From Escherichia phage EPFV3-03/2025, in the sequence record PV435126.1: a stretch of DNA of 64,000 nucleotides; one strand, 5' to 3'. The notes under the pieces were generated by a model. It was not told where the DNA came from. It saw only the letters and a list, made by a program, of their open reading frames with translations, and searched no databases. A program made the translations under genes and the position numbers. The first letter of the stretch is position 1. The number at the start of each line of letters is the position of its first letter. Below, in pieces: positions 4,327-21,166 of this stretch.

Positions 4327-4601
4327 CTATGATGAAGGCATGTGGTAGTGTATACTATGTGGGTGAAAATGTTCAGGCAGACAGTGTGTGGAAATCCATT
4401 AAGTCCACCACCGATGATGCCTTCTTGAGCGGGTTATGTTTCCCCAATCCCGGAGACATTCTCCCTTACCCTGGGGATTTTGTTGTCAACAAGACGGACG
4501 GTTATACCGTGTGCCTGATGGTAGAAAAAATCTTTTTAGACACTAGACACAATCACCGTCTTGTGTTAAAATTTCAAGAATGTAAAATGACAGTTGCCTA
4601 A
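4323..4601 (+). CDS. hypothetical protein (92 aa)
   Basis: ORF overlapping upstream stop by 4 nt; no motif recognised. Confidence 0.4.
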   Translation: MTMMKACGSVYYVGENVQADSVWKSIKSTTDDAFLSGLCFPNPGDILPYPGDFVVNKTDGYTVCLMVEKIFLDTRHNHRLVLKFQECKMTVA

Positions 4602-4613
4602 GGAGGCCTACCA

Positions 4614-4970
4614 ATGTCTAAAGTTACTTATCGTGCAGCTATTTACTGCAATGAGCAACCAATCAATAATGATGGTCACTGCTTTTTTAAAGAAAATCAG
4701 TTGGGCTGTATTGCCCTCCTTGATGAAGGGGAAGGTTATATGATTGCATTGACAGGGTTTGAGCCTGAAGCCTTGGAAGCCAATCTGGACTACCTGGTAG
4801 AGAAGGGTGCTGCAGACCTGGTTGCCAATGGCCTCTCCATAAGCCTTGAAGAAGTGGAGCGCTTCATGGGCAATTACCGTGTAGTGCGTGAGTTTACTAT
4901 CGAGGTGGAAACTCCGGAGTGGGGTAGCACTGAAACTAATGCTGAAGAAAAAGAAGAGGGGGTAGAATAA
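4614..4970 (+). CDS. hypothetical acidic protein (118 aa)
   Basis: ORF preceded by AAGGAGG; acidic C-terminus. Confidence 0.5.
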   Translation: MSKVTYRAAIYCNEQPINNDGHCFFKENQLGCIALLDEGEGYMIALTGFEPEALEANLDYLVEKGAADLVANGLSISLEEVERFMGNYRVVREFTIEVETPEWGSTETNAEEKEEGVE

Positions 4971-5227
4971 TGAAAGTGCAGATCTTGACTAATGCCGAGA
5001 AGATGTTTATCGAAGATACGCCTTTTGAAACTGGTGAGCTACAGTTTGTATATTTTGTTGACTTAGATAAGGTTTTTCCTGCGCTGAATCTGGGTTTGGA
5101 GAAAGTACCTTATAAAACTCTATGCCAGGTTGTCCGTGCCTTAGCCGCAGATGGGGAGTTCCACACCCTTGAAGATATCCAGACCTATGGGTATCTTGAA
5201 CTGCAACGAGAAGAAGAGGTAGACTGA
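4970..5227 (+). CDS. hypothetical protein (85 aa)
   Basis: ORF with ATGA start/stop overlap with upstream gene. Confidence 0.45.
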   Translation: MKVQILTNAEKMFIEDTPFETGELQFVYFVDLDKVFPALNLGLEKVPYKTLCQVVRALAADGEFHTLEDIQTYGYLELQREEEVD

Positions 5228-14252: not shown

Positions 14253-15017
14253 TTGAAATTTATCTACAAAGAACACCACCACAAAGGTGTTGTGTGGAGT
14301 CTATTTGATGGGTCTGGTGGTGCAGTCATTGACTGGGCAAAAGCTGGGTATCTGTGCCTGTGCTTTAATGCAGAAGGTGCTGACCATGGTAGCTATGCAG
14401 AGGTGATAACCGATCATCCCAACATTCACTACGTGGATTATTGGATTGACCCGTGGTTCCCTCAAGAAACTTTTTGCATGTACCCAGCTCCAGACTTTAT
14501 TCTTGCATTTCCTCCGTGCACGCATTTAGCAGTATCAGGTGCTGCACATTTTAAGAAAAAGCTGGCTAAGGACCCCCTGATCCAAATTAATGCTGTAAAA
14601 GATGCTCGGGTTGCGGAAGAGCTGGGAGAGATCTACGATTGCCCGTGGCATGTAGAGAATCCTGTGGGTGTTATGTCCACACTGTGGCGCAAACCTGATT
14701 ACCGTTTTCACCCTTCGGATTATGGCGGGTATTTACCGGAAGATGATGTAAACCCATGGTTTCCTGAATTTATAGCTCCACGTGATGCCTATCCAAAAAT
14801 AACTTGCGGATGGATAGGTAACGGATTTATAATCCCGGCCACAAAACCTGTCCCGCAGATAGTGGATGCGGTTAGTGGTTATTCTATGCAACACGCTAAG
14901 CTAGGTGGAAAGAGTGCAAGGACGAAGATGATTCGAAGCCTTACACCACGTGGCTGGGCTAAAGCTGTATTCTTAGCAAACGAGCCTGCAGTAAGGAGCA
15001 GAATTAATGGGCAGTAA
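14253..15017 (+). CDS. DNA cytosine-5 methyltransferase-like protein (about 254 aa)
   Basis: Motif I LFDGSGG, motif IV AFPPCTHLAVSG (PC-Thr instead of PCQ), motif VI HVENPVG; start placed at TTG 14253 after AGGAG because ORF-track start lies inside the terminator. Confidence 0.5.
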   Translation: MKFIYKEHHHKGVVWSLFDGSGGAVIDWAKAGYLCLCFNAEGADHGSYAEVITDHPNIHYVDYWIDPWFPQETFCMYPAPDFILAFPPCTHLAVSGAAHFKKKLAKDPLIQINAVKDARVAEELGEIYDCPWHVENPVGVMSTLWRKPDYRFHPSDYGGYLPEDDVNPWFPEFIAPRDAYPKITCGWIGNGFIIPATKPVPQIVDAVSGYSMQHAKLGGKSARTKMIRSLTPRGWAKAVFLANEPAVRSRINGQ

Positions 15018-17085
15018 ATTCATGGCATCTGCATACAACCGTTTCGGTGAGCCAAACCCGAAAGCAACCAAATATAAAAGTGGGGGGAGTGTGAAACGAG
15101 ACTATCGTGATGAAAAAGAGGTCGAAACTGTAGAGACTGTTTTAGAAAATACTAAAATTGTCCCTGTTCCACAACAAAATATCGGACTGATGGCTGCACA
15201 ATACTTCGGTGTGCGATCAGCATTGTCTCAAGAAGATGGGGTAACGGTCACTGCAACATATTTCCCATATTACGACCGCTACGGTAATCTATCTGGCTTT
15301 AAAAAGCGCGACTGGACAATCCCTAAAGAGCAAAGGGGCCATTTCTCAGTTGTTGGCATAGTAAAGGCCAACTCTCAGATGTTTGGTCAAAAGCTGTGTG
15401 CATCCTCCAACAACCGTAAACAGATTAACGTTTGCGAGGGGGAGGGTGATGTTATTGCAGCATGGCAAGCTGCATATCAGATACAAGTGAAAGGTATTCT
15501 CACCAATGCTAAAGCCCCAGCGAAGGTGAAGCAGTGGGCTAAAGAAGTTCAAGATGGGATTGATGCAGTTATCGACGGCGGGGATCTGGCAGGAAAACCC
15601 TGCCTGCCTTTTGTTGGAATTAACTGCGGGTGTGCAAACGCCGTAGATACTTTTGCTAACAATGAGAAATTTATCCGTAGCTACGGAACAGTGGTCCTTG
15701 CAATGGACAACGATGCAGCTAACGAGGTAGAGAAGCAAAAACACGTTATCAAAGGTGTTGAGGCCACACATAATATCGCAGCATTTTTGATGGCTGATAA
15801 CGTTTACCACGTGGAATACCCTGGTGAAGTAAACGATCCTGATGGTGTAAAAGACATTCGTGACATGCTGAAGGCTAAAAAGCTGGAAGATATTGTCAAC
15901 ATGTTCCGTCACCCAGTCAAATATGTGCCTGATGCTGTATCTGATTTAGAAGACTTCTCCATTGAGTCTCTTCGTAAGAAGACTTCCAATGGCGTAGATA
16001 TCAGTGCGGAGTTCCCTAAATTGCAGAAGATGCTGAAAGGGCTCCACAAAGGCACCTTGATGATGCTGACAGGCCCATCTGGCGGTGGTAAAACAACTGT
16101 AGCCAAGAAGCTGGAACACTGTATTGCAAGATACTTGATGGATCCAACATGCCCTAAAGCTGATGACTATGAAGAGGATGATCGCCTGTGCCTGATTCAC
16201 CTTGAAGAGGATCCTGAGGAAGCAATCAACTCTCTATACGCCAACCAGCTGGGATTTGATGTTAAAGAGTTTGTTGAAGACCCCAGTCAGTTCCTTACCG
16301 ACCAGGAGCACGCTGAGATCCATCAATCTTGGGCCAAGGCCGGAAAAATTAAAGTGTTCAAGCATTTCGGCTCCATCCCTGTGGATGAGCTGATCACTAA
16401 GCTTAAACAAATGGTGTGTCTGTATCACTGCCGTTACATTGTGCTGGATCACCTGTCCATGGTGATTTCAGGGCTTAATGTTAAGGATGAGCGCAAAGAA
16501 CTTGACATGGCTATGACTCAACTAGCTGCGTTCTGTAAGCAGTTTAATGTGTTTATCTTGGTTATTGCTCACCTGAAGCGCACAGAGATTATACCTCCTA
16601 AGGATAAGGATGGGAATCCGTTGCCTTTCTGGTATCCTGTACGAAAAGAGAACCTTCGTGGTAGTGCCGGATTGGAGCAACTCAGCTGGGTAGTTGTTGG
16701 GGTAGAGGCAGAAGAGATGGTGGATCGTTCTCGTGGGCGTGTCCGACTAGTAGGTCTTAAAAACCGCCCAGCAAAAACGTTAGGTATTGCGGACACTTTG
16801 GTTATGGATCCTCACACAGGCAAGTTCCACGATGCCAGCAATTGGTATTGGGATAAAGAAATGCAGATGTTTACAGACGGAGAAGGTGGGGAGGTTGTTT
16901 GGAGACCTCAGGCTATGTTTGAGGATCAGGATCATGCAGTTGTGGAAACACCCATGGGTAAGGTTGTGGCTGATAAGGTTGTAACTCCTACTGTTACCCC
17001 AGTTGACACGCAGGAAGATCCTCAGTATGATGATCCGTCCTCTAACCACGTCCCCGGTTTTGAAGACGACGAAACACCTTTTTAA
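15007..17085 (+). CDS. Toprim primase / DnaB-like helicase fusion (692 aa)
   Basis: Toprim motifs VCEGEGD and VLAMDNDAANE; Walker A MLTGPSGGGKTT; DnaB-like C-terminal region. Confidence 0.85.
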   Translation: MGSKFMASAYNRFGEPNPKATKYKSGGSVKRDYRDEKEVETVETVLENTKIVPVPQQNIGLMAAQYFGVRSALSQEDGVTVTATYFPYYDRYGNLSGFKKRDWTIPKEQRGHFSVVGIVKANSQMFGQKLCASSNNRKQINVCEGEGDVIAAWQAAYQIQVKGILTNAKAPAKVKQWAKEVQDGIDAVIDGGDLAGKPCLPFVGINCGCANAVDTFANNEKFIRSYGTVVLAMDNDAANEVEKQKHVIKGVEATHNIAAFLMADNVYHVEYPGEVNDPDGVKDIRDMLKAKKLEDIVNMFRHPVKYVPDAVSDLEDFSIESLRKKTSNGVDISAEFPKLQKMLKGLHKGTLMMLTGPSGGGKTTVAKKLEHCIARYLMDPTCPKADDYEEDDRLCLIHLEEDPEEAINSLYANQLGFDVKEFVEDPSQFLTDQEHAEIHQSWAKAGKIKVFKHFGSIPVDELITKLKQMVCLYHCRYIVLDHLSMVISGLNVKDERKELDMAMTQLAAFCKQFNVFILVIAHLKRTEIIPPKDKDGNPLPFWYPVRKENLRGSAGLEQLSWVVVGVEAEEMVDRSRGRVRLVGLKNRPAKTLGIADTLVMDPHTGKFHDASNWYWDKEMQMFTDGEGGEVVWRPQAMFEDQDHAVVETPMGKVVADKVVTPTVTPVDTQEDPQYDDPSSNHVPGFEDDETPF

Positions 17086-17143: not shown

Positions 17144-20100
17144 ATGAGCATGTGGTCGTTCGATTTTGAGGCCTCTGGCTTGCTGGAAGACCCAGATCTT
17201 TATTATCACTGCGGTTTGTTTAAAGAGCTGAATAAGAACCGTTTTATGCTGTTCCTCCCCCTAAATGACCGCACACACTACTCTGAAGAGGATGTGGAGA
17301 AAGCTAAGAACTTCATTCTGGCAAAAAAGACCCTTTATACAGATTTTGAGGCTCGCATAGCAGATTTTTCAGAGTTGGAAGGCTGGCTTACAGGTAATTC
17401 AGATTGGTCACCTACGGCTTTGAACTGTCATAACTGCTACAGCTACGACTTTATGCTGATGGAAAGATTATCCGGTATTCATTTTGATATGTTCCGTGAT
17501 CCTAAATGCATGGGAACTATCAACGACCACCAGGTTAATCTGTTTGATACGTTAGCGATGAGTCGAATCTTGTGGCCTGACCGCCCTTTGCCAAAAGGTT
17601 GTCCGGACGCAGTATTCAATCCAGTTACCAAGAAAATGCAGCCTGTTGGGCCTCATGGCCTTATGGCATGGGGCTATGCCCTTGGTAACCAGAAAGTTCA
17701 AATCGATGACTGGCGTGAGCTTCCGCTGTGGAAGTATGTGGATCGTGTGTTCGAGGACGTTATCATTCAGGAGTTGCTCTGGAAGGAGTTGGTAGCTGAA
17801 TCAAAAGGTGTATTCTACGGCAAATCTGACATGCAGAACTTTATGTATGACCCTGCCAAAGAGAAGCCTAAAGGATTCAAGAAGATTACCTGGAAGAATG
17901 CATTACGCCGAGGCATGCTGCAGCATTTCCTGATGGAGCTGCAGGCTCGACAGGGTGTGTATTTCGACATAGATGGGGCTATTGCTTTACGTGACCGCTG
18001 CGATGCGTGGATGAAAGAGATCGCTGATCGTGTTGAACCACAACTTCCTTTAAAAGAGTTATCAATGTCTCAGCGGCCTAAGTTCCCTGAAAAGCCGTTT
18101 AACCAGGATGGGACAATCTCTAATAACGGTTGGAAATGGTTAAAAGACAAGCTTGGCTATCCTGTGGATATGGGTGCTTTAGAATTCAAAGCTCCGCCTA
18201 AGCGAGCCTTTACCTCCACAGGAGATGTCAGCAAAATGGGGATAAAATGGTGTGAAGAGATGGGCTGCAAAGACCCCGATAAGATGGCTGATTTCTTAAG
18301 GGGGTATATTAAAGGAACCTCTACACCGCACCCTTTACCTAAAGAACTAATGGATCAGGCAATAAGTGATCTGCAGCAGAAGCGGATGCCTGACTGCAAG
18401 ATACCTATGAAGATCAGCAACCAGGACGACATCAAGCGATACCTGATCAGTGCTGGTTGGCTCCCAACAATGTGGAGAACTAAGGATGTAACTAAAGACA
18501 GCAAGAAGAAAGCTTTACCTGATGCAGATGTTGATGCACGAGTATATGCATATATGGACGAGCTTTTGGAGTCAGAGTATTGTGACCTGATTATCAACTT
18601 CTGGAACAAAACTGATGCCAAGTTCCAGACAACCGTGCACAAGTTCCGAAGCTTCCCTAACTCAGAAAGGATTAAAAAGGAAGTGTTTGGGAAGATACGT
18701 AGAAAAGCCAGAGCGCTTATTACTTCTCCGCAACTGAAAGATACGTTTGGACACCTGTGCCCGAATCTTGAAAAATTGAACGGGGAGATGGCTAAAGATA
18801 TCGTTTTGTGGTTATCATTGCGAAACCGCAGATCGGTCCTTGATCCAATCAAGGAGGATAAGGTTGATACTGGTCTTCTTAATCATCCACGTTTGAAGAT
18901 TGACCATAAGCTTCCTGCTAAAAGTTCTGGATTAACAAACACTTCAAGACAGAAACACAGCATTTGTGCAAACATGCCTAAACCATCTCCTAAAGTGGTT
19001 ATGGGTAAAGAGATGCGTAGTCTGTGGGGTGTTCCTCCAGGATACTTTGAGATCGGTATTGACGGGTCTAACTTAGAGCAGCTTATTGGGGCTTGGGGTG
19101 CCTTTGAGTTTGACAACGGCCTGTATTATGATGTTGTAAGTAACGGCGATGCACACTGTTATTCAGGAGATACACAAATTCTCACGGAGAAAGGGTGGGT
19201 GAGGTTTGAAGATCTTGATCCGGGAACACAAGTGTTCCAGTACGATCACAACACCTCGTCGATGAACCTTGTTACTCCATTAAATTACGTTAAGCGTAGT
19301 TATTGTGGGGATATGTATCATTTCCACAACAGCAGTGTGGATTTTATGGTTACAGATCAACACAGGATGCTGACCGTGGATCACAGAAGCAATAAATTGT
19401 TTGAAGATTTGGCAAAAGACCTGAAAGCAGGTAAAGGGTCTAATTCAGGAAGAAGGTTTATCCATGCGGCAGAGTTTTATGGGAATACAACCTTATCTCC
19501 TGCCCAGGTTAATTTGCTTATTGCTATTCACGATGATGGGTACTTGCATACAAATAAGGACGGCAGCATCGTGTGCAGGATTCAGGCCGGGAAGGGCAGA
19601 AAAGTTGCAACGCTTTTAGATACTTTTTCTGCTCTAAGCCTTAGTTATGTAGAGCAGAGCGGGAAAACCACAAAAGGAGGCTTACTGGCGAGAAGGTTCC
19701 AATTCCACGTTCCGTCCTGGGTATTTGAGTTTTTGGACAGCAATAAGGATTTCACCTACAACCTGATGGACCTTGATAAAGAATCTAAAAACCTGTTTAT
19801 AGCTTCTTTATCTAACTGGGACGGGTGGGTATCTCCCGAAGGTGGAAAAGTTGCCTACTACTCTCAGGCCGAGTGCAGGAAGAAATCTGTAGAGGTTGTG
19901 TCTGCGCTGGCTACTCAGTGTGGTTTACGGAATAATACGGTGGCGATTCACAAAAAAGGTCGTTCCGTACAGCACAGAATCACGATTGGTAGCAAACAGA
20001 GAGCAGGGTTGCTGACACTATCTAAAGAGCCTGTCGGGGTGAGCGGTTCTTTGGTTTATTGCGTTACCGTCCCTTCTGGAGCAATCATTGTGAGAAGGAA

Positions 20101-20536
20101 TGGTAAAGTGGCAGTGTGCGGTAACTGTAATAACGCCAAAGCTTACTCTTCTGTAGCAGGCAAGGAGATTTCCCGTAACGATGGTAAGCCTGTCACGTAC
20201 GGTGTTATGTACGGGGCACAAAAAGATAAAGTTGCAGACATGCTGGATATCTCTCCAGAGTTGGGGCAAAGGGTAATCGATGCGCTTTGGGATGCCAACC
20301 CAGGTCTTAAGGGGCGTAAAGAGGATCTGGAGAAATTCTGGGAAGCAACAGGTAAGAAATTTATCTACTCTTTTGACGGTCATGCCATCTGGACCCGATC
20401 TAAACACTCTTTACTTAATGCATACCAACAGAATGGTGGTGCATCGTTGTGTGACTTAGTTGGGATACTCATGCACCACCAAATGGTGAAGCGTGGGTGG
20501 TACGATGAAGGTGTCCGTCGTATTATTTATTACCAT
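17144..20536 (+). CDS. family A DNA polymerase, exon 1 (contains intein)
   Basis: 3'-5' exo motif SFDFEASG; motif A-like DGSNLEQL...GDAH; T7-like motif B RNDGKPVTYGVMYGAQ after the intein; ORF lacks motif C unless spliced to exon 2. Confidence 0.9.
19157..20125 (+). mobile_element. intein (323 codons) with LAGLIDADG-like endonuclease motifs inside DNA polymerase
   Basis: Begins CYSGDTQIL (block A), TDQH (block B), LLIAIHDDGY and FIASLSNWDGW (LAGLIDADG-like), ends ...VYCVTV...RRNGKVAVCGN followed by Cys. Confidence 0.75.
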
Positions 20537-20812
20537 AAATAACATTGTGGCTTCATAGAGTAATCTATGTCGAATAACCTCTTTAACTGCGGGAAGCCTA
20601 AACCTTATGGCAAGGTAATCCGCAACGAAGCGCTCAAAAGAGCGAACGCTCAGAGGCCATTCCGAAAGGAAGTAGACCAGCAAGTGCGGTCGAAATGGGA
20701 GGATTCCTGTGGTTGCTTATCATAGGAATATGAGATGGTCCGATCCTACGTGAAAACGTATGGCTATGCACGTAATGGTGCGGGGTAGCTTAACGACCTA
20801 CCTGAACTATTG
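20537..20812 (+). mobile_element. group I intron (276 nt, no ORF) in DNA polymerase gene
   Basis: Starts after exon U (cat|), ends with G before gat; P-like aactgcgggaag 20585-20596, Q-like aatccgcaac 20617-20626, S-like gagatggtccga 20732-20743; splicing restores in-frame HDE motif C. Confidence 0.6.
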
Positions 20813-21166
20813 GATGAGTACCAACTTCAAGTCCCTGACACGCCTAAGTATAAGACTGTGTACACCTTCGACACAATTGAAGAACTGGAAGCATTTAAGG
20901 CAGAACAGGAGGCCAAACTTCATGTGTTTGACGGTCATAAGTACAAAAAGGCACGCAAGGATGAGAACGGAAACGAAGTGGTTGACAGAGACGGAAACAC
21001 GGTGTACGATCCTATTCTGAACGATGACGGAAAGCTTGAACTTATCTGGAGCCCTGTGGGTGAAATGGTGGTGCATTGCTTCTGGCAAGCTTCTAAAATG
21101 ATGGGCGTCCCGTTCCAGATCACAGGTGAATACCTGTGCGGTCGTAATTGGGGTGATTGTCACTAA
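20813..21166 (+). CDS. family A DNA polymerase, exon 2 (C-terminal 117 aa)
   Basis: Same frame as exon 1; DEYQLQV completes YYH-DE motif C; C-terminus VPFQITGEYLCGRNWGDCH resembles Pol I terminal G-NW-H. Confidence 0.7.
   Translation, partial: DEYQLQVPDTPKYKTVYTFDTIEELEAFKAEQEAKLHVFDGHKYKKARKDENGNEVVDRDGNTVYDPILNDDGKLELIWSPVGEMVVHCFWQASKMMGVPFQITGEYLCGRNWGDCH

Follow-up and report, generated by a model that had tools for sequence, protein, structure and literature searches.

The ribonucleotide reductase genes of SPβ carry both introns and an intein. The same combination is found in nrdA of the Certrevirus CB7, one essential gene that holds both group I introns and an intein, and reverse transcription PCR (RT-PCR) has demonstrated the splicing of two HNH-bearing introns in the polymerase gene of that phage (PMC7344957). 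Two T7-like phages, ΦI and W31, have self-splicing introns of subgroup IA2 in their polymerase genes, reported at 'site 881' of E. coli Pol I and with an HNH gene in P6a (Bonocora & Shub 2004, as given in PMC3428280). Here we analyze a stretch of 64,000 nucleotides (nt) from Escherichia phage EPFV3-03/2025 (record PV435126.1; hereafter the window), in which positions 17144-21166 encode an interrupted DNA polymerase. Our findings make it highly probable that this is one T7-like family A polymerase gene with two independent selfish insertions in its active-site region, an intein and a group I intron, such that an active enzyme would need two self-catalysed excisions. In joining both kinds of element in one gene the locus resembles CB7 nrdA and the SPβ genes; it differs from them in that its host is a polymerase and in that both elements lie within 137 codons in the active site.

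The source genome is that of a Vequintavirus (rV5-like), a myovirus of 137 kb, and the interrupted gene is the replicative family A (T7-type) DNA polymerase of such a phage. Region 17144-21166 matches 133 phage records, nearly all of them Vequintavirus; its identity is 97.4% with Escherichia phage YP-6 and about 94% with rV5, the type phage. As the original prediction had it, the open reading frame (ORF) 17144-20542, of 1132 amino acids (aa), breaks off before motif C, and a second ORF at 20810-21166 provides the C-terminus. The first ORF, whose ATG is preceded by the ribosome-binding sequence AAGGAG, begins with MSMWSFDFEASGLL, and here the exonuclease motif claimed for exon 1 is borne out by a weak alignment to the T7 exo I region DIEANALL. 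It continues through motif A (GIDGSNLEQL...NGDAH), an insert of 323 codons that ends in VCGN before a Cys, and motif B (RNDGKPVTYGVMYGA), all as predicted, and closes past ...IIYYH with a TAA at 20540-20542, one codon inside the intron. When 20536 is joined to 20813 the reading becomes IIYYH/DEYQLQV (a slash marks an insertion point or junction throughout); the 276 nt in between equal 92 codons, and exon 2 is thus in the frame of exon 1. With both elements removed, phmmer aligns the protein to T7 gp5 at E = 7e-16, placing DGSNLE on D475, GDAH on H506, RNDGKPVTYGVMYGA on R518-Y526 and HDE on H653-E655. Motifs A, B and C are collinear with T7 DNA polymerase 468-658 only once both elements have been excised.

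The 276 nt at 20537-20812 are, judged by their sequence, a textbook group I intron, and their boundaries are fixed by a natural allele that does without them. Phage NHEP1 has a single unbroken polymerase coding sequence (CDS) of 3747 nt from which exactly 20537-20812 is missing with the frame kept, and BLAST places window positions 17144-20536 and 20813-21166 on adjacent NHEP1 bases. Since the NHEP1 junction reads TATTACCAT/GACGAA, no alternative register is possible for the intron boundaries. The NHEP1 polymerase reads ...YYH/DEYQ... without interruption, and the spliced window protein is the same as the NHEP1 protein at 1237 of 1249 positions. This allele also confirms the junction that had been proposed from the window, namely a spacer of 276 nt with a U immediately 5' and G as its last base, whose removal restores the HDE motif. 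The intron falls between the equivalents of T7 His653 and the catalytic Asp654, so that in motif C the codon for His is parted from that for Asp; the peptide predicted across the spliced junction is IIYYHDEYQLQVPDTPK. From exon 2, contiguous with exon 1 in NHEP1, come the C-terminus and the two catalytic residues of motif C, Asp and Glu.

A covariance search, which the original prediction had named as a check, supports the group I reading. The Rfam model RF00028 (Intron_gpI) matches 20527-20762 over its full length (1-253) with 64.7 bits against a cut-off of 50, or E = 4e-14 over the whole window, far beyond chance; the remainder of the 64-kb window contains neither a second group I intron nor any other Rfam match, and the NHEP1 locus, which serves as a negative control, is without any Rfam match. 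We drew helices P1 to P10 by hand from the window sequence and placed them on window coordinates (Table 1). In P1 the splice-site pair is U20536•G20547, and P10 adds 4 bp, 94.7% of whose cells are paired; taken together, these two pairings mean that the internal guide sequence CAUUGUGG at 20543-20550 pairs with both exon ends. P3 encloses P4, P5, P6, the 5' strand of P7, P7.1 and P7.2, and P7 closes as a pseudoknot, all of whose cells pair (100%); it shows a compensatory change and a single-sided one. Covariation was scored on a MAFFT alignment of five introns of 253-328 nt, all at the YH/DE site, the compact homologues of the window intron being those of JEP1 (328 nt), Avunavirus 18-1-2 (317 nt) and the Vibrio phages K412 (254 nt) and 10AMN (253 nt). 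Across these five, 96.8% of cells are paired, and displacing the 3' partners by 1-3 columns lowers this to 35-43%; double-sided changes occur in 28 of 73 pairs, and none of 500 shuffles attains any observed measure. Compensatory changes are found in P2, P3, P4, P5, P6, P7, P7.2, P8, P9, P9.1 and P9.2. Thermodynamic folding by itself gives a minimum free energy z-score of -2.8 and recovers P2, P4-P6, P7.1, P8 and P9.

The subgroup can be read from the same drawing. P7.1 and P7.2 joined by G-U-A, the stated mark of subgroup IA2 (PMC3428280), are present in the window intron. GUAG is invariant in the five-sequence alignment and P7.2 shows a compensatory change, while P7.1 is missing from the Vibrio phage copies. 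An alternative GCUA-UAGC pairing near P9.1 is not kept in the Vibrio copies, and P9.2 was preferred. The intron holds no endonuclease gene: its sole ORF, of 52 aa at 20567-20725, overlaps the P2-P8 ribozyme core, has no Pfam match and is regarded as spurious.

In sequence and predicted structure, the 323-aa insert upstream of the intron is a LAGLIDADG intein of canonical architecture and new for the Vequintavirus group. Here the intein-less allele is rV5 itself, which reads GDAH/QNNAEAY where the window has GDAH/[323 aa]/CNNAKAY; it aligns up to 19156 and resumes past the insert, so that the natural counterpart lacks exactly 19157-20125, as the intein reading of the original prediction would have it. 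The insert, CYSGDTQ...VAVCGN followed by Cys, comprises aa 672-994 of the ORF. The intein-less rV5 DNA around the insertion site is GGAGACGCACAC/CAAAACAATGCTGAGGC, and the predicted ligated-extein junction peptide contains VVSNGDAHCNNAK. The insertion point is between motifs A and B, directly behind the residue that corresponds to T7 His506.

The intein blocks A and B and the two LAGLIDADG segments noted in the original prediction prove to consist of residues kept across a whole family, and in the model they form a HINT and a LAGLIDADG fold. Counted over 145 full-length family domains, position 1 is Cys in all 145, B:7 is Thr or Ser in 144, B:10 is His in 145, F:4 is Cys in 143, G:5 is Thr, Ser or Cys in 134, G:6 is Gly in 141 and G:7 is Asn in 145; the +1 residue is Cys in 84, Ser in 45 and Thr in 16. 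In the window, blocks F and G hold Cys302 (F:4), Cys321 (G:5), Gly322 in place of the usual His (G:6) and the terminal Asn323. A 24-sequence alignment has C1, T10, H69, D127, K149, K197, W221, D222, C302, G322 and N323 invariant. Of the acidic positions of the LAGLIDADG motifs, 127 is Asp or Glu in 136 of the 145 domains and 222 is Asp in 135, and as both D127 and D222 are intact in the window the endonuclease may be active.

The family to which this intein belongs is very large, resides mostly in replication proteins (polymerases, primases, helicases) and is essentially uncharacterised. An exhaustive HMMER search with the insert returned 7,418 representative proteins at E <= 1e-3, of which 1,967 reach E <= 1e-10, again far beyond chance. 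The matches mostly cover residues 1-323 end to end and are internal in proteins of many lengths, embedded in unrelated hosts; by their flanks they occupy conserved sites in polymerases, DExH helicases and Toprim primases. Four of the proteins (P0007, P0009, P0018 and P0046), all DNA_pol_A, carry a related intein at the same GDxH/ polymerase site. Compared with the PDB, the family profile found the AceL NrdHF intein (6zgq) at E = 8.5e-12, over the N-terminal splicing half. AlphaFold2 with the 24-sequence alignment gave a confident model of a HINT plus double-LAGLIDADG fold (predicted local distance difference test, pLDDT, 94.4; predicted template modelling score, pTM, 0.91); from the single sequence the pLDDT was 36. 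Foldseek matched this model to TliVMA (1.7e-14), PI-SceI and PI-PfuI with E = 1e-12 to 1e-14 and TMq 0.64-0.72, and to LAGLIDADG enzymes, both the endonuclease domains of PI-SceI and PI-PfuI and the free I-DmoI and I-SceI (E about 5e-6). The window intein has in common with PI-SceI, PI-PfuI and TliVMA the two-domain architecture, Cys1, the terminal Asn and insertion at a conserved active site; it differs from them in its identity of only 11-14%, in length (323 against 360-454 aa), in Gly at the penultimate His position and in having Cys rather than Asp at F:4.

From these features we propose the following course of expression. The 276-nt intron would fold into the P1-P10 ribozyme, with CAUUGUGG pairing with the exon ends CCAU/GAUG. 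An external guanosine would attack after U20536, the freed exon 1 would attack after G20812, and ligation of the exons would bring the motif C codons for His and Asp together. Translation of the unspliced mRNA would stop at the TAA one codon into the intron and yield a protein that lacks the catalytic Asp-Glu. Translation of the spliced message would give a 1248-aa precursor in which the 323-aa intein follows the residue equivalent to T7 His506. Once Cys1 had undergone an acyl shift (or Cys302 had attacked), the chain would pass to Cys+1, Asn323 would cyclise and the peptide bond would be restored, releasing a 925-aa polymerase reading GDAH-CNNAKAY along with a free LAGLIDADG endonuclease. This endonuclease probably cuts the intein-less alleles of co-infecting phages, and repair would copy the intein into them. 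The intron could be an immobile remnant, or could be mobilised by the HNH enzyme of the versions found in sister phages.

Several observations weigh against this proposal. RNA splicing, protein splicing and homing are, for this phage, deduced from sequence; the covariation of the intron rests on five sequences and its structure was drawn from the window sequence itself; and because the intron has no endonuclease gene, its mobility is speculative. For the intein, the penultimate His (G:6) typical of class 1 is not present, a word-indexed homologue search returned nothing at E <= 1e-3, no Pfam LAGLIDADG model, LAGLIDADG_3 included, matches the window copy, and its scores stay below the curated thresholds (Hint_2, 23.5 against 28.4 bits; TIGR01445, 14.1 against 24.5 bits). 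In the comparison with known inteins that the original prediction had suggested, the family profile does reach the solved intein; LAGLIDADG_3 itself matches 4 of the 24 aligned family members, with a best E of 3.8e-5. The sub-threshold Pfam and NCBIfam scores and the Gly at G:6 could be taken to mean that the insert is an intein that has decayed and no longer splices, or that it is an insertion domain that is retained, the polymerase either working with it in place or being a pseudogene. We consider this very improbable. The splicing positions Cys1, Thr66, His69, Asn323 and Cys+1 are all intact and match a family of thousands, and Gly at G:6, present in nearly all of the counted domains, is the family norm and not decay; the verified AceL NrdHF intein likewise does without the G:6 His, which is thus not essential. 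T7 His506 contacts the incoming nucleotide, and a 36-kDa domain kept beside its equivalent, in the stretch from motif A to motif B, would probably obstruct the fingers. In addition, six independently isolated lytic phages carry the intein in what is presumed to be their sole replicative polymerase gene. A different doubt concerns the spacer, which might stay in the mRNA of a split gene and separate two independently translated polypeptides, exon 1 and a 118-aa product of exon 2. Unspliced split phage genes do exist (PMC7344957), and the Aeh1 NrdA gene, split by mobE, is of this kind; ORF 20810-21166 can formally begin at a TTG, and several GenBank records annotate two separate polymerase CDSs. 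This possibility nonetheless appears extremely remote to us, given that the spacer amounts to an entire group I ribozyme whose helices are backed by covariation, and that its guide sequence brings into register precisely those exon ends that adjoin each other in NHEP1. Upstream of exon 2 there is neither an in-frame ATG nor a Shine-Dalgarno sequence, the TTG overlaps the last bases of the intron, and separate polypeptides would part His from Asp-Glu within motif C.

The proposal of two excisions leaves room for two kinds of intein chemistry. In a class 3-type route Cys302 (F:4), and not Cys1, would attack the N-terminal junction first, forming a branched thioester at block F before transfer to Cys+1. 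By sequence, the solved intein nearest to that of the window is AceL NrdHF, an experimentally confirmed member of class 3 whose triplet is M-C-T in place of the usual W-C-T (PMC7891396). Both inteins have PNHRM in block B, a Met at B:12, a Cys at F:4 and at G:5 a residue with a hydroxyl or thiol, and both lack His at F:13 and G:6; the WCT triplet positions (B:12, F:4, G:5) are Met71, Cys302 and Cys321 in the window, F:4 and G:5 being as conserved in the family as counted above. The C-terminal motifs are also alike by eye, FH(C)LSVPGKSF in 6zgq (a partial sequence) against VYCVTVPSGAI in the window. Moreover, the family members P0011, P0012 and P0052 at an 'AEKPNDLH/' site appear to begin with S, K or A, though position 1 is extrapolated there from alignments whose first query residue is 5 or 6; at this site P0016 and P0030 have an initial C. 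AceL NrdHF, probably phage-derived, has Ala1, is naturally split, is associated with a GIY-YIG gene and lies in a ribonucleotide reductase, whereas the window intein is contiguous, begins with Cys1 and has a LAGLIDADG domain. Class 3 is defined by the lack of an N-terminal nucleophile and by Trp at B:12, whereas the window has Cys1 and Met71; it also keeps the canonical Thr at B:7 and His at B:10, and Cys1 occurs in every full-length domain counted, with a slight bias in that alignments were required to begin at position 1. According to the founding paper on class 3, 3 of 37 WCT-triplet inteins have Ser1 or Cys1 (PMC2807308), so that Cys1 together with an F:4 Cys is not unprecedented. As Cys1, Thr B:7 and His B:10 are invariant, we favor the class 1 route and regard the class 3-type route as unlikely. 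A tentative extension, to which we attach little probability, is that the family could bridge class 1 and class 3 splicing by using either or both thiols, or that a Cys1-Cys302 disulfide could act as a redox switch on polymerase maturation.

Table 1. Features of the interrupted polymerase gene in window coordinates
Feature	Position	Strand	Content	Support
Polymerase exon 1, N-extein part	17144..19156	+	aa 1-671; 3'-5' exonuclease domain, motif A (GIDGSNLEQL) and NGDAH	ORF list; alignment to T7 468-506
Intein	19157..20125	+	323 aa; HINT domain split by two-motif LAGLIDADG endonuclease domain	Precisely missing in rV5
Intein block A	19157..19195	+	CYSGDTQILTEKG; Cys1 at 19157-19159	Cys1 in 145/145 domains
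Intein block B	19340..19375	+	DFMVTDQHRMLT; Thr66 (B:7), His69 (B:10), Met71 (B:12)	
LAGLIDADG motif 1	19511..19546	+	NLLIAIHDDGYL; Asp127 at 19535-19537	Model helix 115-127
LAGLIDADG motif 2	19790..19831	+	NLFIASLSNWDGWV; Asp222 at 19820-19822	Model helix 208-221
Intein blocks F and G	20051..20125	+	LVYCVTVPSGAIIVRRNG KVAVCGN	Coordinates and family counts
Polymerase exon 1, C-extein part	20126..20536	+	Cys+1 at 20126-20128, motif B RNDGKPVTYGVMYGA, through ...IIYYH (first residue of motif C)	Aligned to T7 DNA polymerase 507-653
Extein patch linked to intein	20126..20152	+	27 nt	Strongly diverged from intein-less alleles
Group I intron	20537..20812	+	276 nt, IA2-like, no endonuclease ORF	RF00028; intron-less NHEP1 allele; covariation
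P1	20533..20550	+	Exon CCAU 20533-20536 with GUGG 20547-20550	Paired in 5/5 homologues
P2 hairpin	20554..20569	+	CAUAG with CUAUG	Compensatory changes in 3/5 pairs
P3	20578..20702	+	CCUCUU 20578-20583 with GGGAGG 20697-20702	Compensatory changes
P4	20588-20593/20619-20624	+		Compensatory changes
P5	20596-20598/20614-20616	+		Compensatory changes
P6	20631-20635/20640-20644	+		Compensatory changes
P7 pseudoknot	20655..20740	+	GGCCA 20655-20659 with UGGUC 20736-20740	
P7.1 and P7.2	20660..20691	+	P7.1 UUCC-GAAA-GGAA 20660-20671, G-U-A, P7.2 GACC...GGUC 20675-20691	
P8 hairpin	20704..20728	+	10 bp	4 compensatory pairs
P9, P9.1 and P9.2	20745..20802	+	P9 20745-20763 (GAAA loop), P9.1 20767-20782, P9.2 20784-20802	Compensatory pairs: P9 5, P9.1 1, P9.2 3
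Intron terminal G and P10 3' strand	20812..20816	+	G 20812; GAUG 20813-20816	Pairs CAUU 20543-20546
Polymerase exon 2	20813..21166	+	DEYQLQV... to ...GRNWGDCH and stop	Aligned to T7 D654/E655

The window intron is already known from sister phages, in which it is annotated; publications on it give no structure, subgroup or experiment. The identical 276 nt (100%) occur in rV5, LL12, MaxTheCat and about 20 further records. In LL12 (MH491969) and in the BASEL phages (e.g. MaxTheCat, MZ501094) the polymerase CDS is annotated as a two-piece join, in the LL12 record with the note 'intron splice site predicted based on homology', and the LL12 announcement mentions the polymerase intron in one sentence (PMC6658697). 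LL12 and the BASEL phages share the intron with the window but are without the intein. The rV5 paper describes introns in the terminase only and takes the polymerase as a 775-aa protein. In the rV5 reference record (NC_011041; 501-3555 of locus L002) the polymerase is mis-annotated: a 1-nt indel relative to the window produces a tiny ORF, gp224, and the 775-aa gp223, which is without the N-terminus, exon 2 stands as a separate 'DNA polymerase', gp220, and the hypothetical gp222 and gp221 lie inside the intron. We regard these two intron-internal ORFs as spurious.

Introns of other phages share, or probably share, the insertion site. His881 of E. coli Pol I lies directly before Asp882 in the QVHDE of motif C, and from this residue numbering we read 'site 881' of ΦI and W31 as the H/D junction that the window intron occupies. 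Both cases have a T7-type family A polymerase as host and belong to subgroup IA2, with P7.1 and P7.2 linked through G-U-A. P6a, where ΦI and W31 have their HNH ORF, is also where the introns of Mangalyan and FV3 hold theirs. Unlike the ΦI and W31 introns, which belong to podoviruses, the window intron is ORF-less, lies in a myovirus and has its self-splicing predicted from sequence. Mangalyan has the same intron backbone plus an HNH ORF whose stop codon falls in the 3' strand of P6, and the window intron is the ORF-less form of this HNH-carrying intron. The Seunavirus SSE-121 likewise has an HNH-bearing intron at the same YYH/DE site with the same P1 sequence. The Rfam gathering threshold misses the introns of Mangalyan, SSE-121 (YYH/DE) and Vibrio phage 10AMN, which were placed by exon homology. 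The introns of CB7 and SSE-121 differ from that of the window in carrying HNH genes, with an extra intron in motif B and no polymerase intein reported.

The first SSE-121 intron (358-999 of locus L009; 63.8 bits), an additional HNH group I intron, splits motif B (VTYG/MYGA) and so does not share the site of the intein. With one intron in motif B and one in motif C, at least two catalytic motifs in this polymerase lineage are intron targets, and a third site holds the intein. In phage Av-05 (1484-1699 of locus L010) the terminase and polymerase introns of the subfamily Vequintavirinae appear related. A stretch of 46 nt in the 251-kb Bacillus phage Goe21 (1501-1545 of locus L014), between two hypothetical genes, is 91% identical to intron P1-P3; the locus has no Rfam match at the gathering threshold, and the stretch may be the 5' end of an ORF-bearing intron.

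The intein is rare. It occurs in 6 of the 133 related records (NHEP1, YP-6, 241Ecol014PP, JEP1, Mangalyan and WM), at about 99% identity to the window copy in five of them, where whole-gene identity is 92-97%, and at 88% in WM. None of the six records annotates it, and a literature search retrieved no paper describing an intein in a Vequintavirus polymerase. Its carriers comprise every intron state: none in NHEP1, 276 nt in YP-6, 241Ecol014PP and the window, 328 nt in JEP1, and HNH-bearing in Mangalyan and WM. As the intein accompanies each of the four intron states, either insertion behaves as a polymorphic mobile element that is independent of the other. In a sample of 60 of the 133 records, with states inferred from match span and counts accordingly approximate, the intein is absent and there is no intron (2778 nt) in about 25 records, an HNH-bearing intron (3620 nt) in about 14, the 276-nt intron in about 8 and the 328-nt intron in 2; the intein is present, with various intron states, in 3.

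Presence of the intein is linked to a signature in the adjoining extein. Over the first 60 nt 3' of the intein the identity to rV5 is 67%, against 92-100% elsewhere, and the first 27 nt are matched only by the six intein-bearing records, all others aligning from position 28 on. Such a patch would be expected from co-conversion with a diverged donor, or from recoding of the endonuclease target. The 241Ecol014PP locus (L013) has, at 4531-5178, a free-standing HNH gene directly 3' of polymerase exon 2; as the locus stops resembling the window 12 nt short of the polymerase stop codon, this gene may be another homing insertion, at the 3' end of the polymerase gene.

Both elements are ordinary in kind and leave current understanding unchanged, the intein being rare and unannotated. 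The practical weight of our findings lies in annotation, as rV5-type phages are used in typing and therapy and many of their records, including the reference genome, show the polymerase cut short, accompanied by fragments and by spurious ORFs inside the intron. The coordinates given above and two rules allow this to be corrected, namely CCAU/...G/GAUG for the intron and GDAH/C...N/C for the intein. The 4-kb gene also represents a natural experiment, in which close relatives combine presence or absence of the intein with an intron that is absent, ORF-less (in two variants) or HNH-bearing. This allele set is suited to the study of homing, co-conversion and element loss, to which the intein adds its linked flank signature. 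For the biochemistry of protein splicing, a class-3-like active site with Cys1 kept is a modest lead.

A few further observations were made along the way. In P0011, P0012 and P0052 the terminal Asn is followed by another intein-like N-terminus (...ISGN/CLSSDTELLT), which suggests that these sequences hold tandem or nested inteins. About 16 'Campylobacter phage' records (MG0656xx; host given as C. jejuni) are approximately 94% identical to the E. coli Vequintavirus polymerase gene, some with the identical 276-nt intron; their host labels look doubtful, or the phages look like coliphage contaminants. A Pfam scan of exon 2 gave no match, and tRNA genes were found nowhere in the 64-kb window. Upstream of the polymerase, 15007-17085 is a primase/helicase gene, so named in the annotation of relatives. 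Between 25600 and 54900 of the window (about 29 kb) neither strand has an ORF of at least 250 aa, and this region is taken to be a block of small genes as in rV5-type genomes.

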